Sequence record: OK272472.1
DNA length: 64,000 nucleotides
From: Escherichia phage JLBYU28
Strand: one strand, 5' to 3'
Part shown: positions 2,901 to 42,199 of the stretch, in pieces
Layout of the letters: every line of letters starts with the position of its first letter
Position numbering within the stretch: position 1 is the first letter of the stretch
The notes under the pieces: model-generated
Databases searched by the model: none
What the model saw: the letters and a program-made list of their open reading frames with translations, nothing else
What the model was told of the DNA's origin: nothing
Position numbers and translations under genes: made by a program

Positions 2901-2975
2901 TTTGACTCTCCTAGTTTAAGGACTTTACTTAGTGGGGAAGTTCATTCCCTCCCCGTTGATTAGTAATTTACTTGT
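2901..2975 (-). promoter_or_regulatory. family-A cassette copy 3 (TTGCAA-17-TAAATT, hairpin, SD)
   Basis: Repeat of the family-A element. Confidence 0.5.
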
Positions 2976-3122
2976 TTTGATAGCTGATTGCAAGCAATTT
3001 TTTAAGCTTATCTATAAAGAATCTTTTAAGTTAATCCCTTTTAGATAAACCCCCTCGAACAAAGTTACCAATGTCAAGAGGGATTGTCAACACTTTTTTA
3101 AAAGTTTTTTGTAAGTTATTGA

Positions 3123-3464
3123 TTAACTGATGAATATTTTTTCAGGCTTTACATAGCTGATACGCTGACTTTTTAGCAGGTCATCCCAGATTAGTGCGGC
3201 AATATGAGCATAACCGGATTCACGTAGAAGCTTCATTGCTTTACTTCTCGTTTCGAAGCGGCTTGCATAGTACTCACTGTTCAGAGTCGTTTTCTTCCCT
3301 TCATTGTCTACATGAATAATCTGCATTATTTGAAAGGGGCTTACATCCTCGCCTTTATTCCATTGCTCAAAGTATTTTAGGCACTGCATAGGTGACATCT
3401 TGTCGCTTACTTGAGTTGACCAAGATGAATCCGGTTTATTGGTAATTACAGTTACATAAGCCAT
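3123..3464 (-). CDS. hypothetical early protein (113 aa)
   Basis: ORF behind family-A cassette. Confidence 0.55.
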   Translation of the reverse strand: MAYVTVITNKPDSSWSTQVSDKMSPMQCLKYFEQWNKGEDVSPFQIMQIIHVDNEGKKTTLNSEYYASRFETRSKAMKLLRESGYAHIAALIWDDLLKSQRISYVKPEKIFIS

Positions 3465-3558
3465 TTTTTGAATCTCCTAGTTTAAGGGTTTATGTAGTGG
3501 GAGGTTGTTACCCCCCCCCCCCGTTGATTGACAATTTACAAACTTTTATCAGGCTTGT
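3465..3558 (-). promoter_or_regulatory. family-A cassette copy 4, containing a C12 homopolymer (3511-3522) in place of the usual CCTCCCC arm
   Basis: Repeat alignment by eye; TAGACA-17-TAAATT on minus strand. Confidence 0.5.
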
Positions 3559-3792
3559 CTAGTCTTTTTCTATGATAATTTCATATTGACCGTCAACGCT
3601 GTCAAAATAGATTCCGTCTTCATCTTCTGTCTTAAAGTAGCATTGAATGTCGTCACTGGCGGGGTAGTCTTGTCTTGCTATCTGGCACACCTGAATAGCA
3701 TTTTCTTTACTTCCTGTAAACTCTTCAAGCCCTTTAAAGTCGCATGAATGACCGTTACAGATAGAAAGGATGAGATAAATGGTTGTCAACAT
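3559..3792 (-). CDS. hypothetical small protein (77 aa) with hydrophobic N-terminus, possibly secreted
   Basis: ORF behind family-A cassette; N-terminal MLTTIYLILSIC. Confidence 0.5.
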   Translation of the reverse strand: MLTTIYLILSICNGHSCDFKGLEEFTGSKENAIQVCQIARQDYPASDDIQCYFKTEDEDGIYFDSVDGQYEIIIEKD

Positions 3793-23052: not shown

Positions 23053-24021
23053 TTACATAGAGACTCTATCACGAATCTCAGCGATTTTTGCATCGTTCAT
23101 TCGGGATTCACCTTTAATCTTAGTCCATCCAAGATACCCACACACCCTGTTAATCACAGAGATATCATATGAATGGCAAACCTCACACTCTTCCACATCA
23201 GCCTTTGGTCTGTTACCACAATGTTCACAGATTGCTAAGTCAAAGTTAAGTCCTTGATAGAAACCTTTCAACATACCTCTCGTAATACAACTCTTAAGTG
23301 CTGATAAGTTTTCTGGGTTAGCTACTCTTACATACTGGATTCTACCACCTCTACAGATATGGAAGAATGGCTCTTCTAAGTCCTGCTTCTCAAATGGTGA
23401 GATGTCTGCTGCAACATTCATATGGAAACTGTTTGTAAAGTATTCCTTGTCAGAGACACCTTTAATAACGCCAAACATATCTCTGAACTGTTTTAACTGA
23501 GTTCCACAAAGTGATTCTGCTGGAGTGCCATATACCGCATACAAGAAGCCATCTTCGTTCTTAAACTCTTCAGTTTTCATGTTGATGTATTCTAGAACAT
23601 CGTATGCAAAACTACAGCTTCCAACTTCATGAAGTCGTTTACCTTCAGCAAGAACAGATAGCTCATCAAGCGCAGTAACCCCAAAAGAAGCTGTGAAGGA
23701 CTTCACGATATCCCAACCAACCCTGTCAGTAGGTTTCTTATTCCCTTTGTACAGACCACCTTGTGTAAATGCAAGAGGGTTAGAACTTGCTGGCATATTA
23801 GCAATCATTTCGTAACGTTTCTTGTGGAAGCTGCGAATCATTTCTAAGTACTTATCAAGCTCTTTCCAGAAATCTAAGCCATTCTCTTTAGAATACTGGT
23901 AAATCATTGGTAAGTTCAAAGATACAGCACCAATGTTAGCACGACCTACATAAAACTCTTCACCATTCTCGTTATGATATGGTGATAAGAACGCTCTACA
24001 CTTGTTGTTCAGGTAAGTTCG
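23053..24021 (-). CDS. nrdD: anaerobic ribonucleoside-triphosphate reductase NrdD, 3' exon
   Basis: Glycyl-radical motif RVCGYLG and zinc ribbon CEHCG...CEVC; reading frame open upstream of the track start as far as an in-frame TAG at 24022-24024. Confidence 0.8.
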   Translation of the reverse strand, partial: RTYLNNKCRAFLSPYHNENGEEFYVGRANIGAVSLNLPMIYQYSKENGLDFWKELDKYLEMIRSFHKKRYEMIANMPASSNPLAFTQGGLYKGNKKPTDRVGWDIVKSFTASFGVTALDELSVLAEGKRLHEVGSCSFAYDVLEYINMKTEEFKNEDGFLYAVYGTPAESLCGTQLKQFRDMFGVIKGVSDKEYFTNSFHMNVAADISPFEKQDLEEPFFHICRGGRIQYVRVANPENLSALKSCITRGMLKGFYQGLNFDLAICEHCGNRPKADVEECEVCHSYDISVINRVCGYLGWTKIKGESRMNDAKIAEIRDRVSM

Positions 24022-24313
24022 CTAAGCTTACCCCGCTTTATTCAAGCTGCTTACTGTCGCCAGTAAGTCCAGACTATATCTTCTACTTATTTCTAAGTAG
24101 CGTACCATTTCGAGTCGCTTGACCCTACACCGCTACATTCATCACGGTTAGTCGTTCGGCATTTAGATGTATTCAAACTCATATTCGAAGTTATTTGGCA
24201 TGTAAGACTCCTATGTTGTATAGTTTCTTACATCATACACCATTTAGCACAGGATTGTCTACATCTGTAGAGTTTCCCTGTTTAGGCACGTTTTAGATGA
24301 GCTATAGAGCTTG
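24022..24313 (-). other. putative group I intron interrupting nrdD (5' boundary not resolved)
   Basis: Non-coding gap inside a single gene; minus-strand GACUA (in aacgactaacc) and UAGUC (in atatagtctgg) candidates for P7, followed by stem-loops and a terminal G. Confidence 0.55.
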
Positions 24314-25513
24314 TTAACCCATCGGTGAAATTACCTTACCAGAACGCTCAAAAGCCTCTGCTACAGCACCATGACCAGATACACTTAAGAAGTCTGGATA
24401 CATTGCTTTAGAGCAACACTCAATGGCTTTACTGTACAGGTGACCTTGACAAATATTCTCATCATGTCTCTTCTGGTCATAGATATAAACCAGTTTAGGA
24501 AATACAACCGGTTTTTTGCTCTTACCTTGTCCGTTCATACGAACATCTAGGAGAGTACTTGCAATCATATATTGCAGTCGGTTATCTTCATTAGACATAT
24601 CTGAGTCAAGTAACCCGAATGTCAAAGTTGTAAATGCAAAATCCCCACGGCTACAAGGTACGGTATTTAGTTTCATCTCAAGTGACTGAAAACCTTGAGT
24701 CAGTTCAATTTGTAACTGCTCCATTACATAGTTATGGTAATGTTCTTTAGGAATACCGTAAGATGCTGCTTTCTCAGCATGATAGCGTAGAGACTTCTTA
24801 GCATACGGTACAAGCACCTTATCAATCTCTGCTAAAGTAAATCCACCAAATTGCTGTGCAGTTGCTGAAAGAACTACATCACCAATAACCTGTAAGGCTG
24901 ACAGCACAGACTTCGGTTCACAGTATTCAATGCCAGACATTTCAAAGCCACCTTTCAGTACTTTACCGATGTCAAACAGGCAACAGTTGATACCACCAAA
25001 AATTAGGTCTCTTAAGTCATGGATGTAGATAAACCCTTTTTCAATGGCTTCGAGTTCCTCTGGTGTTAAATGGTATTGTTTAAAGATTTCTTTAGTCAGA
25101 TAGCCACGAATAATTGAACCTTTTGTAGAAATTAAACTGCTGTCAAAGTTAGCATTTTCACGGTCACCTAAGAAGAGTGTATCCTTAGTCTTCTGGTAAA
25201 GTTCATCCCAATTTTGAGCAACCTCTTTACGGTAATTTCTATACGTTGAGTAAGACTCATAAATCTCGTGATTGACTTCTGCCAAAGCACCCTCAACAAT
25301 ACTGTGAATATCATTTACTGAAACGAGTAAATTATTCTGCTTAGTAGATTTTACCAGAATCCTCATAAATGCTGACTCAAGAGCTTGAGTAACATCTGGT
25401 GGAAGCTCTTTATAACCAACTCTGTTAGCTGACTTTGTGACTGCTGCTAAAACTTTTTTGATATCAGGTTCTTCGAGTGAGCCATTCTTTTTAATAATCT
25501 GTACTTTGTTCAT
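24314..25513 (-). CDS. nrdD: anaerobic ribonucleoside-triphosphate reductase NrdD, 5' exon (ORF as seen; true splice donor lies upstream of the in-frame stop)
   Basis: N-terminal ATP-cone-like region; same protein as the downstream exon. Confidence 0.75.
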   Translation of the reverse strand: MNKVQIIKKNGSLEEPDIKKVLAAVTKSANRVGYKELPPDVTQALESAFMRILVKSTKQNNLLVSVNDIHSIVEGALAEVNHEIYESYSTYRNYRKEVAQNWDELYQKTKDTLFLGDRENANFDSSLISTKGSIIRGYLTKEIFKQYHLTPEELEAIEKGFIYIHDLRDLIFGGINCCLFDIGKVLKGGFEMSGIEYCEPKSVLSALQVIGDVVLSATAQQFGGFTLAEIDKVLVPYAKKSLRYHAEKAASYGIPKEHYHNYVMEQLQIELTQGFQSLEMKLNTVPCSRGDFAFTTLTFGLLDSDMSNEDNRLQYMIASTLLDVRMNGQGKSKKPVVFPKLVYIYDQKRHDENICQGHLYSKAIECCSKAMYPDFLSVSGHGAVAEAFERSGKVISPMG

Positions 25514-38694: not shown

Positions 38695-40837
38695 ATGGAA
38701 AACGTAGATTTTAAAAACTTACATTTAGTTGGTGATACAGAAACTGATGGTTTACTCCTTGAGTTCACTAAAGTTCACGTAATGGCCTTTGCAGACTATA
38801 AATCTGACGATGAAGAGCCACCTGTATGGGTCTTTACAGATGAGCCTATCCTCGGTCACAAGTACACCAAGTACATTAAGGGTGGCTTACGTGAAGGTAT
38901 TGAGTTTGCGTTAAAGGCAAAACGTCTTTGCATCCACAACGGTCTCGGTTATGACTGGTGGGTTTTCAATCACATTGCACCTGATTTATGGAACTTTGAT
39001 AATCCAAAGTGTAAACCGTGGAGTAATTTCTTTCAGGATTCTCTTATCCAGTCTCGTGTTCAGTGGATGGATAGACCAACTCCAAAGGGTTATAAAGGTG
39101 CTCATGGTTTGGCTGCATGGGGTGCTCGTGTTGGTGTTCGTAAACCAGAGATTGAACATTGGGGTGTATGGAATGCAGAAATCTTCACTCGTGTTGTAGA
39201 AGATATACGTATTAACGCCAAAACTAAACGTGCACTTGATAACGAGTATCTCAAGCTTAAGAAGTGTGGCATAGACACTTATGAAACCTACATGCGAGCT
39301 AAAGAGACATCTTTCTGGATGAGCCAGCAAGCTATTAATGGCTGGAAAGCTGATAAAGAGCTTATGGAGTTCCATGTAAAGGAACTTGACAAGTTGACTA
39401 ATGAGCTTGCTTCAGAGGTTGAACCACATCTACCTCCAACTATTAAGACCAAAGGTAAAGTCACTGGAGAAGAGTTTGCAAAAGCTTGGAATGAGTATGT
39501 TGAAACATTTGGTCATGCAGATGGACTGAAGAGGATTACCAAGTATCCTAAGACAAAGTATCGTCAACAGGTGCGTAACGGTGAGATGCAGACATACGAA
39601 ATCAAGCCATTTGGTAAGCCAACTACAAAGATTTTTAACATTGAAAAGAGAAATTGCTATACACCAACCAACTCTGTAACTGGTGAAGAGTACAAGGAAG
39701 GTTTTGTAGCAATGAAGGATGCTCGTGCAATTTGCAATGAGTTGAATGCAAAGATTGGTAAGAAATGCAAAGACTGGAAGCCAGTAAAAACAGTCAAAAC
39801 TGTGAAGTACTATAACAGCCACGTTGTTAACCACTTTGAACTTGAGTCAAGTCGCTACACAGGATTGATTGATGCACCATATACACCAATTGAGTTTGAA
39901 GTTTCTCGTATGACTCAGGTAGCAGTTGTAAAAGACTACTTGAAATCAGTTGGTTGGATTCCAGATGACTGGAACTACAAGAAAGACTCAGACGGTCGCC
40001 CTGTCAAAGTTTGTCGTTTCAAAGACAATAAAAAGATGATTACAAAACATCCTAAGTGGCAGGAGATGGTTGAGCGGTGTGGTTTGAGCTATGTTGAGCA
40101 CGAAGGTGTACAGTATATCGAGCATAACTGGTCTGTGAAGAAGTACACAGATTTGCTTGAATCTTGCTTAATCCGTACTTCACCAAAACTTACTGAGTCA
40201 TCTTATGATACGATTGAAGGTGAACTTGGACAGAAGATTGCAAAGTACTATACTTTGATGCACCGACGCAGAACTATTGAGAACTCAAAGGATGATGAAA
40301 AAGGTTGGTTGAACCAGATTCGTCCTGATGGTCGCCTTAGTGCTGGTGCAATGGTGTTTGGTACTTCAACTGGACGTATGACACAATATGGTATTGTAAA
40401 CGTACCGTCTGGTGCTGCTGTCTATGGAGCACCTATGAGGGAGGTTTGGATTTGCGAGGAAGGGACTAATATCGTTTCAGTTGACCAGAACTCTGCACAG
40501 CTTGTTTTACTGTGTAACTTTATGGGTGATAAAGAGTTCACTAAAGCGGTAACTGAAGGTAAAGAGTCAGTAGAATTTACCAAGCGAGAAGATGGGAGGT
40601 ATTATTGCAAACATCTTGATAAGTACCTTAATCCAGAAACTGATAAGTATCTTCGTTATGATGCTGAGAATGACCTCTATGAAGTCTACACAGGGACTGA
40701 TGCGCATACACTGAATAGTATTTACTTTGGTCTTAACAAAGAAGAGGATATTGTTCATTGCAGGGAGACACAGGATGAGGAACTTCTCCACGAGATTACA
40801 AAAGGTCGTAAGAAAGCCAAAAATGGCATTTATGCGT
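38695..40837 (+). CDS. DNA polymerase (family A), exon 1
   Basis: 3'-5' exonuclease Exo I motif LVGDTETDG; motif B begins RKKAKNGIYA before the frame is interrupted; ATG at 38695 with GAGGGAG SD. Confidence 0.8.
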
Positions 40838-41105
40838 CAGTGGCGCATGTAAAACGTTGTGAATTGCTGGAAGCCTAAGTCTGTAAAGATATGGTAATCA
40901 GCAGCGAAGCCTCTTAAGAGGAACGTTCAGAGACTATCGAAAAGCATACTTAATGTATGAACTGAGTAGAGTAGGGTGGTAAGCTAATGACCATTCCCAA
41001 GTGCAACGGTAGTATTACTACTACGTGATATAGTCCGACACTCCGTAGAAATGCGGAGAAGTTCATAAGAGAACTGGTACACCTTGCGAGTGTATTGACC
41101 AGATG
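40838..41105 (+). other. group I intron (268 nt) in DNA polymerase motif B
   Basis: 7-bp P1 between exon end UAUGCGU (40831-40837) and intron GCGCAUG (40843-40849) with U-G at the splice site; GACUA/UAGUC P7 candidates; terminal G at 41105; splicing restores AKNGIYALLFGAGDEK. Confidence 0.7.
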
Positions 41106-41662
41106 TATTGTTCGGTGCAGGTGATGAGAAGTTTGCCAAAACCATTAAGGCAGCTTCTACAGAAGAAGGTGCATTGACTAAGCAGACCTACTATATGCGT
41201 CTGCCAAAGATTAAGAAGTTACTTGATAGCTTAGAAGCCGATTTTAAGGCGTCTAAAAAGGCTCTGGAAGAGGTTTTTGGGAAGAATTCTTCAATTGCTA
41301 AAGGTGGTTATATCAGGGTTGCTGGAGCATGGATATGGTGCAAATCTCCACATAAACTACTGAACTACCTCCTGATGAGTTCGGAAGCACAGATTCAGAA
41401 TGAGGCCATCAACCTAGCAGCAAGAAAAGCCTGTGAAGATGGCCTGACAAAACTGAATGCTCGAAAACCAGCTATCGGAGCAAGGTTACTTCTGGCATAT
41501 CACGATGAAAATAGTTGGGAATGTCCAGAGGGTATGACACATGATATGAAAGCAATTGCTGACTGGATGTATGGACAAGCTTCAAAAAACTTAGGTTTGA
41601 GGAAAGAAACACTTGTAACTGGTACAGCAAAGGTTGGTAAGTCGTGGTATGAGGTACATTGA
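41106..41662 (+). CDS. DNA polymerase (family A), exon 2
   Basis: Continues motif B (LFGAGDEK) and carries motif C (LLAYHDE). Confidence 0.8.
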
Positions 41663-41665
41663 TTA

Positions 41666-42199
41666 ATGGATTTTATTTCACAAAAACGTTTAAAGGAGCT
41701 ACTACACTATGACCCCGAAACAGGGGTCTTTACTTGGCTTCGTAGAGAAGGTAAATCAAGAGCTGTTAGTGTTTTTAACAGTAACTATGCAGGAAAGGTA
41801 GCAGGTAATGTTCAGACAGATTCAACTGGTCATAAACAGATTAGTATCTATTTTGACAAGAAAGCACATAAAGCACACAGACTCGCATGGCTTTATGTAT
41901 ATGGCAAGATGCCAAAAGGTATCATTGACCATATCAACGGAGACTCTCTTGACAACAGGATTGTAAACTTAAGGGAAGCAGATGATTTTCAAAGTGCTTG
42001 GAATAAAGGTAAACCAGTCACCAATAAATCTGGGTACAAAGGTGTAAGTCTTAAGAAGAAGTCTGGTAAGTGGGTCGCACAGATAAGTTATAAAGGTAAG
42101 AAGATGTTTTTAGGTCACCATGACACGCCTGAAGAAGCCCATAAAGATTACTGTGAAGCTGCTATGAAACTCCACGGAGAGTTTGCAAAACTAAGTTGA
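41666..42199 (+). CDS. HNH homing endonuclease with AP2 DNA-binding domain
   Basis: HNH block IDHINGDSLDNRIVNLREA; AP2-like GYKGVSLKKKSGKWVAQISYKGKKMFLGHHDTPEEAHKDY. Confidence 0.8.
   Translation: MDFISQKRLKELLHYDPETGVFTWLRREGKSRAVSVFNSNYAGKVAGNVQTDSTGHKQISIYFDKKAHKAHRLAWLYVYGKMPKGIIDHINGDSLDNRIVNLREADDFQSAWNKGKPVTNKSGYKGVSLKKKSGKWVAQISYKGKKMFLGHHDTPEEAHKDYCEAAMKLHGEFAKLS

Follow-up and report, generated by a model that had tools for sequence, protein, structure and literature searches.

The polymerase locus of Escherichia phage JLBYU28 (OK272472.1), a Felix O1-like phage (Felixounavirus), was analysed in a stretch of 64,000 nucleotides (nt) of its DNA, here called the window, and all coordinates are positions in this window unless another phage is named. 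Judged by its sequence, the segment at 40838-41105 (+ strand, 268 nt) is a genuine group I intron, IA-like and without an open reading frame (ORF), and it interrupts motif B (the O-helix) of the essential family-A DNA polymerase. A gene for an HNH-AP2 endonuclease stands directly behind the polymerase gene. The best explanation of this arrangement, and one that we consider reasonably probable, is that a group I intron of a mobile family and a separate selfish HNH-AP2 cassette share the 3' part of the polymerase gene. Under this explanation, the intron would be the ORF-less form of a family whose copies at the same site elsewhere carry an Endo VII-type homing endonuclease in the P6 loop, and this intronic nuclease would be the likeliest engine of intron spread. 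The HNH-AP2 gene would be the type A allele of a free-standing cassette that sits at the polymerase 3' end whether the intron is there or not, and any help that it gives to the intron would come through proximity and not through cutting of the insertion site.

Exon 1 of the DNA polymerase (38695-40837, + strand) has its best start at the ATG at 38695, with the ribosome-binding site GAGGGAG 5 nt upstream, and ends with ...GRKKAKNGIYA and the first base of a Leu codon; its frame continues for 13 codons inside the intron until a TAA at 40876-40878. Exon 2 (41106-41662, + strand) begins with UA UUG UUC GGU (LLFG...) and ends with the TGA stop at 41660-41662. The frame of exon 2 is open from 41099 only and contains no ATG, and no ribosome-binding site was found for exon 2 as a separate ORF. 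The break of the polymerase frame after RKKAKNGIYA and its resumption as LFGAGDEK, as described in the original prediction, are thus present where that prediction had placed them.

Splicing at 40837|41106 gives a protein of 899 amino acids (aa) with the junction peptide GRKKAKNGIYALLFGAGDEK, which is an uninterrupted sequence in 24 of the 24 intron-less relatives compared. Since these relatives encode exactly GRKKAKNGIYALLFGAGDEK across the junction, 40837|41106 is the sole consistent splice. The Pfam model DNA_pol_A matched the spliced protein with 52.4 bits against a cut-off of 34.3, in a match that spans the junction; for the unspliced ORFs, exon 2 alone reached 25 bits, which is below the cut-off, and exon 1 gave no score. 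Motif B (RxxAKxxxYxxxFGxG) is present as RKKAKNGIYALLFGAGDEK, which aligns with RDNAKTFIYGFLYGAGDEK of T7 DNA polymerase without gaps. The earlier claim that a splice at 40837/41106 restores motif B in a product of about 899 aa was therefore supported by the junction of the intron-less alleles and by the continuous Pfam and T7 alignments. The junction sequence TATGCGT|TATTG was found in all 26 intron-bearing alleles and in none of the 24 intron-less alleles.

The intron was recognised by the Rfam covariance model RF00028 with 64.2 bits (gathering score 50, E-value 5.7e-14), in agreement with the group I assignment first proposed from the letters of the sequence. Its structure comprises P1, P3-P9, P7.1/P7.2 and P9.1, has no P2, and ends in a terminal G. 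In P1, the exon strand UAUGCGU (40831-40837, + strand), whose final U provides the U-G pair of the 5' splice site, pairs with GCGCAUG (40843-40849) of the internal guide sequence (40838-40849, + strand), and this helix was recovered by the minimum free energy (MFE) fold. The guide sequence opens with the P10 guide, the first five intron bases CAGUG, which by manual reading can pair with UAUUG of exon 2. The P7 strands GACUA (40932-40936) and UAGUC (41031-41035; both + strand) were placed by the Rfam alignment and their coordinates, so that the P1 with its U-G pair, the GACUA/UAGUC candidates and the terminal G of the original prediction were all read in the sequence at the expected positions.

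The catalytic core extends over 40855-41058 (+ strand), and its other helices were assigned from the Rfam alignment and the MFE fold: P3 (40855-40861 with 41002-41008), P4-P5 (40864-40903), the P6 hairpin (40910-40921), P7.1 (40944-40959), P7.2 (40974-40998), P8 (41009-41024) and P9 (41041-41058). The MFE fold recovered P1, P3-P6, P7.1, P7.2, P8 and P9, with a z-score of -1.65 that is not decisive alone. Relative to the Rfam consensus, the intron has a 63-nt insertion between P7 and P3', which forms the two hairpins P7.1 and P7.2. By the fold, these two extra hairpins fit the IA type (IA2) usual in phages. Within 40838-41105 no + strand ORF of at least 20 aa was found, as expected for an intron described as ORF-less.

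In the Rfam alignments, compensatory changes between the window intron and the intron of Escherichia phage ZQ2 were observed in P3, P5, P8 and P9. The ZQ2 element (L038, an N4-like phage; positions 460-703) is a group I intron with a core 72% identical to that of the window and an Rfam score of 91.8 bits. It interrupts an RNA polymerase gene, not a DNA polymerase gene, and an HNH ORF comes after it.

With P1 (UAUGCGU/GCGCAUG), P10 (CAGUG/UAUUG) and the terminal G, the intron would leave the mRNA by self-splicing. It is present in this essential gene of more than 90 plaque-forming phages that were isolated independently, and in them both exons are conserved without frameshifts; from the viability of these carriers and from the related polymerase intron of LUZ24, which is spliced in vivo (PMC10914365), we infer that the intron is self-splicing. 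It is extremely improbable that no splicing occurs and that the gene yields two separate polypeptides or is a pseudogene. The annotation of most of the ~96 intron-carrying GenBank records, which give two separate 'DNA polymerase' coding sequences, would agree with such a reading, but the break lies inside the O-helix, and exon 2 has neither an ATG nor a ribosome-binding site in a frame that opens only at 41099. The significant covariance-model match with P1, P10 and the terminal G, the frameshift-free exons of the more than 90 viable phages and the LUZ24 precedent also speak against it. As a modest point of annotation, the polymerase should be recorded as a single spliced product of 899 aa.

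The 3.7-kb region is 95-97% identical to that of many Felix O1-like phages of Escherichia and Salmonella, the nearest records reaching ~97%, and most of these records give it as 'DNA polymerase (x2)' with an HNH endonuclease behind it. Two unannotated GenBank records, MG065664.1 and MG065668.1 ('Campylobacter phage A132/A126'), contain an intron 100% identical to that of the window in a locus that is 96.6% identical. Their host label looks doubtful, the locus being typical of Escherichia and Salmonella Felix O1-like phages.

The Felix O1 genome paper reported no introns (PMC3185647), and Felix O1 itself has no polymerase intron, so this statement is correct for Felix O1. The paper on phage Meda (2019; Meda is MH586731) mentions the intron (PMC6486253), Fang et al. 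(2018) gave the Endo VII-type proteins of JH2, EC6, FSL SP-010 and 2 JES-2013 as intron-encoded (PMC6083498), and 'two introns' receive a passing mention in the paper on SPJ41 (PMC9951933). Because it is mentioned or listed in these papers, the polymerase intron has to be regarded as already known, though superficially described; the Meda and Fang papers give no intron class, no position in motif B and no relation to the HNH cassettes (PMC6486253, PMC6083498). The introns of Meda, JH2, EC6, FSL SP-010 and others lie in the same gene and at the same insertion site as the window intron, with no essential difference.

The window intron lies inside what we take to be codon 764 in E. coli Pol I numbering (R754, K758, F762, Y766). 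Codon 764 in the O-helix would thus be a further insertion site among phage family-A polymerase introns. The published sites are 674, 676 and 881 (PMC3428280). IA2-type introns with HNH nucleases also occur in the family-A polymerase genes of SPO1, SP82, Bastille, Pf-WMP3 and phiL7, but at sites 674 and 676 and with the HNH gene encoded in the intron, and the T7-like site is 881, not motif B (PMC3428280).

Two related introns were found close to the window site. In the LUZ24-like Pseudomonas phage TL (L056), an intron at 2319-2956 with an Endo VII ORF lies inside codon 762, and in phage Bas89 (L039) an intron at 2952-3729 lies inside codon 766, a position established by comparison with the intron-less EP335. 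A Bas89 site identical to that of the Felix-type intron was rejected, since EP335 shows the true site 6 nt downstream. The sites 762, 764 and 766 therefore form a cluster of three phase-1 sites, 6 nt apart, in the O-helix. In the related TL, Felix-like and Bas89 introns, each exon ends in U and each intron in G. The LUZ24-type intron of TL likewise belongs to group I and lies in motif B of a family-A polymerase, and its intronic Endo VII-type nuclease is 51% identical to the intronic ORF of the Felix type; it differs in its site 6 nt further upstream, which falls within the Tyr codon of TFI|Y|A (762 vs 764), in containing an ORF and in belonging to another phage family.

The intron is carried by ~96 GenBank records of Felix O1-like phages, and the relation between intron form and HNH type was tabulated over a sample of 50 loci together with a chimeric-query count. 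Three forms of the intron were observed: the 268-nt ORF-less form of the window, a form of ~800 nt with an ORF, and a form of 311 nt. In the ~800-nt form, a 160-aa ORF in the P6 loop matches Pfam Endonuclease_7 (E-value 9e-20; Endo VII-type, DHHRN family), and its carriers are L019, L021-L024 and L040-L047. The P6 nuclease ORF is frameshifted in VpaE1 (L023), an HNH-free genome. The 311-nt form (NS7, Tf and warpig; L037, L053 and L054) is a clean deletion of the ORF between two CAAA repeats, in which loss of the ORF is directly visible, and it scored 62.3 bits with RF00028. At the Rfam gathering threshold, the ORF-containing introns of L024 and Bas89 were not detected because of their large insert, as expected, and the TL intron, with 43 bits, fell below the threshold. 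The first base pair of P6, C-G in the 268-nt form, is U-A in the other forms, a compensatory difference.

Among the intron-bearing genomes, the median identity was 97.6% in the intron core (96-100% to the same intron in Felix O1-like relatives) vs 77.5% in the distal part of exon 2, which therefore indicates recent horizontal spread. Across most relatives, the first ~1.7 kb of the polymerase gene show 92-100% identity. Exon 2 and the final 400 nt of exon 1 (together ~40440-41662) fall into deeply diverged haplogroups of ~75-80% identity, with mostly synonymous differences and fine-scale mosaicism, a pattern that suggests a recombination hot spot around both selfish elements. Matches of Staphylococcus phages to the 5' part of the intron were discarded, as they lie near holin and endolysin genes and not in a polymerase gene.

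The exon tracts linked to the intron are short (~-50 to +50/+100) and were found in at least four backbones. In the comparison of nearest neighbours by segment, genomes with an ORF-less intron resembled other intron carriers within this range, and beyond the intron flanks they resembled intron-less genomes of the same HNH type. The distal matches pair L036 (type C) with L026 (type C), the window (type A) with L002 and L030, and L037 (type D) with L005 and L010; the window shares distal exon 2 and the HNH gene with the intron-less L001 and L002. Judging by these flanks, at least four backbones have therefore acquired or lost the intron with no exchange of the HNH gene. The window itself looks like a backbone of the L001/HY02 type, including its HNH gene, together with a short intron-linked tract. 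In two intron-less genomes, L016 and L017, exon 1 ends in GCGT as it does in the intron carriers, and L017 is one base off the intron-linked junction TATGCGT|TATTG. These two junctions may be footprints of intron loss or of partial conversion.

The second element is the free-standing HNH-AP2 endonuclease gene at 41666-42199 (+ strand, cassette type A), whose ATG is preceded by GAGG 11 nt upstream. It starts 4 nt after the polymerase TGA and encodes an HNH_3 domain at residues 69-104 (Pfam, E-value 8.9e-15) and a C-terminal AP2 domain at residues 122-171 (E-value 9.9e-12), which agrees in position and domain content with the HNH-AP2 gene of the original prediction. The protein belongs to PHROG 99, HNH endonuclease (E-value 1.2e-70), and its AP2 region matches plant AP2/ERF structures. 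A promoter and terminator scan of the interval between polymerase and HNH gene gave no signal above chance, and the HNH gene is probably co-transcribed with the polymerase gene.

At the 50 loci, the slot right after the polymerase stop is either empty or filled by an HNH-AP2 gene, of which at least four diverged types occur. The cassette is present at 30 of them (types A, A', B, C and D), sporadically among close relatives, and in several genome pairs its boundary lies at the polymerase stop codon. A downstream HNH gene was found in 14 of 24 alleles with no intron (types A, A', B, C and D), in 3 of 13 alleles with an ORF-containing intron (all B-like), and in 13 of 13 alleles with an ORF-less intron of 268 or 311 nt (types A, B, C and D). 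Since 14 of the 24 intron-less genomes carry one, the HNH gene does not need the intron.

When HNH-bearing genomes were compared with HNH-free sisters, the polymerase genes were 94-100% identical as far as about +250 to +318 of exon 2; from there to the stop codon and the HNH gene, the identity was 70-84%. The start region of the HNH-linked polymerase haplotype, as deduced for types B, D and A', corresponds to 41353-41435 (+ strand; exon 2 +248 to +330), with a consistent boundary at about +318 (41423), where the peptide changes from CRRMIDEG to CRRACEEG or ARKACEDG. This boundary looks like the edge of a tract co-converted with the HNH gene and is a candidate homing site, which would place HNH homing ~320 nt downstream of the intron site.

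The original prediction had taken the layout as a sign of collaborative homing. In its strict form, the type A HNH-AP2 enzyme would cut intron-less alleles at the insertion site while the intron protects its own genome, and repair would then copy the intron, often with the HNH gene, into the recipient. The layout is indeed that of S-PM2 psbA/F-CphI and of T3 gene 5.3 (PMC3984707, PMC6083498), and every sampled ORF-less intron adjoins an HNH gene. Nevertheless, we consider strict collaborative homing unlikely. If an HNH enzyme cuts the site, intron-less carriers of its gene must differ there from HNH-free genomes. The intron-less carriers of types B and D were identical to HNH-free genomes across the site (L004/L020 vs the wV8-like L015 from -88 to +37; L005 vs L010 from -31 to +61), and because of this identity types B and D cannot target the intron site, although both types also accompany ORF-less introns.

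For types A and C, 14-19 of 80 positions separate the intron-less carriers from HNH-free genomes, and the type A carriers L001 and L002, with 17-19 of 80, could be read in favour of cutting at the site. This divergence is the general divergence of that polymerase 3' haplogroup, which makes the comparison uninformative for type A, and the differences are shared by L030 (type B) and L025/L026 (type C), so that no specific immunity signature is seen. The recoded junction of L001 and L002 was accordingly rejected as such a signature, since the whole 3' region is equally diverged and is shared by genomes of types B and C. Moreover, the HNH-linked haplotype of types B, D and A' begins only at about +318, and the exon segments between intron and HNH gene match intron-less genomes; no joint transfer of intron and HNH gene as one block was seen. 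In other genomes, this intron also brings an Endo VII-type nuclease gene of its own. T3 gp5.3 was tried as a relative of the window's HNH protein and rejected, as no meaningful similarity was found. As far as the comparative data go, collaborative homing by cutting of intron-less alleles at the intron site is thus unproven, and for cassette types B and D it is contradicted.

Several observations weigh against the explanation of an intron and a cassette that merely share the gene end. An HNH gene stands beside all 13 ORF-less introns and only 3 of the 13 ORF-containing ones (Fisher 1e-4), and the same 13 of 13 compares with 14 of 24 among the intron-less genomes (Fisher 0.007), a pattern that full independence of both elements does not predict. 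The strict test described above covers types B and D, and type A, the type of the window, had no HNH-free sister genome. The P6 of the 268-nt intron cannot be obtained from the ORF-containing form by simple deletion, and either form may be the older; the +318 boundary has exceptions in L021, in L016 and in the pair L008/L009.

The samples behind the co-occurrence counts are related, with perhaps only ~4-5 effective independent events, and shared ancestry could therefore explain the pattern. That the co-occurrence reflects a real dependence, either because the HNH cassettes drive the intron without a nuclease in trans by nearby breaks or because a free-standing nuclease permits or forces the loss of the intronic one, is put forward only tentatively. 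If it were true, Felix O1-like coliphages would show all stages of the life cycle of a mobile intron side by side in phages that are easily crossed: the empty site, the ORF-less intron beside a free-standing nuclease, the intron with its own nuclease, the decayed ORF and the deleted ORF.

A corresponding dependence through proximity, by trans homing of the mobE kind or by turnover of homing endonuclease genes, would let ORF-less introns persist only beside an HNH gene; it is conceivable, but we regard it as rather doubtful. By one route, the HNH enzyme would cut within the 3' part of the polymerase gene, at a distance of a few hundred bases from the intron, and the conversion tracts would sometimes carry the intron; by the other, a genome with a free-standing nuclease would tolerate the loss of the intronic nuclease. 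Such a dependence would account for 13 of 13 vs 3 of 13, a count in which the HNH genes are of four types and the ORF-less introns of two forms (268 and 311 nt) that arose independently; only ~320 nt separate the intron site from the putative homing region of the HNH cassettes, and precedents are given by T4 mobE, which mobilises the defunct nrdB intron (PMC2790892), and by a proposal of homing endonuclease gene turnover (PMC10448857). However, the intron-linked tracts are short and stop before the HNH gene, and distal exon 2 agrees with that of intron-less genomes carrying the same HNH type. The backbones that host ORF-less introns carry an HNH gene even when intron-less, so the association may reflect ancestry, and the frameshift in L023/VpaE1 shows ORF decay in an HNH-free genome too.

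The preferred explanation of two selfish elements in one gene end can be set beside known systems. S-PM2 psbA/F-CphI and T3 5.3/I-TslI likewise pair a gene for a free-standing nuclease with an ORF-less intron, or an intron site, in the conserved gene next to it (PMC3984707, PMC6083498), and in T3 the HNH gene directly follows the family-A polymerase gene, as in the window. The S-PM2 and T3 nucleases were shown to cut the insertion site, whereas the comparison of Felix O1-like genomes, for cassette types B, D and A', places the HNH footprint ~320 nt away. In T4 mobE/nrdB, as in the window, a free-standing HNH gene stands next to a gene with an intron that lacks a working nuclease, and the mobility of the nrdB intron was explained by a nearby break with co-conversion (PMC2790892). 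Unlike in that model, the intron-linked tracts at the window's locus are short and separate from the HNH-linked tract. In these easily grown and crossed phages, two selfish elements, either competing or cooperating, share one end of an essential gene and exist there in many allelic states. How introns and homing endonucleases unite or replace each other could be tested directly in such a system.

Elsewhere in the window, a second Rfam group I match of 53.9 bits was observed at 24050-24400 (- strand), where it splits nrdD, the gene for the anaerobic ribonucleotide reductase. It lies between the ORFs 24314-25513 and 23053-23919, which match positions 1-250 and 285-560 of Pfam NRDD. In the window this gap contains no ORF of at least 80 aa, and in UAB_Phi87 and Meda a homing endonuclease is present at the nrdD position (PMC4837284, PMC6486253).

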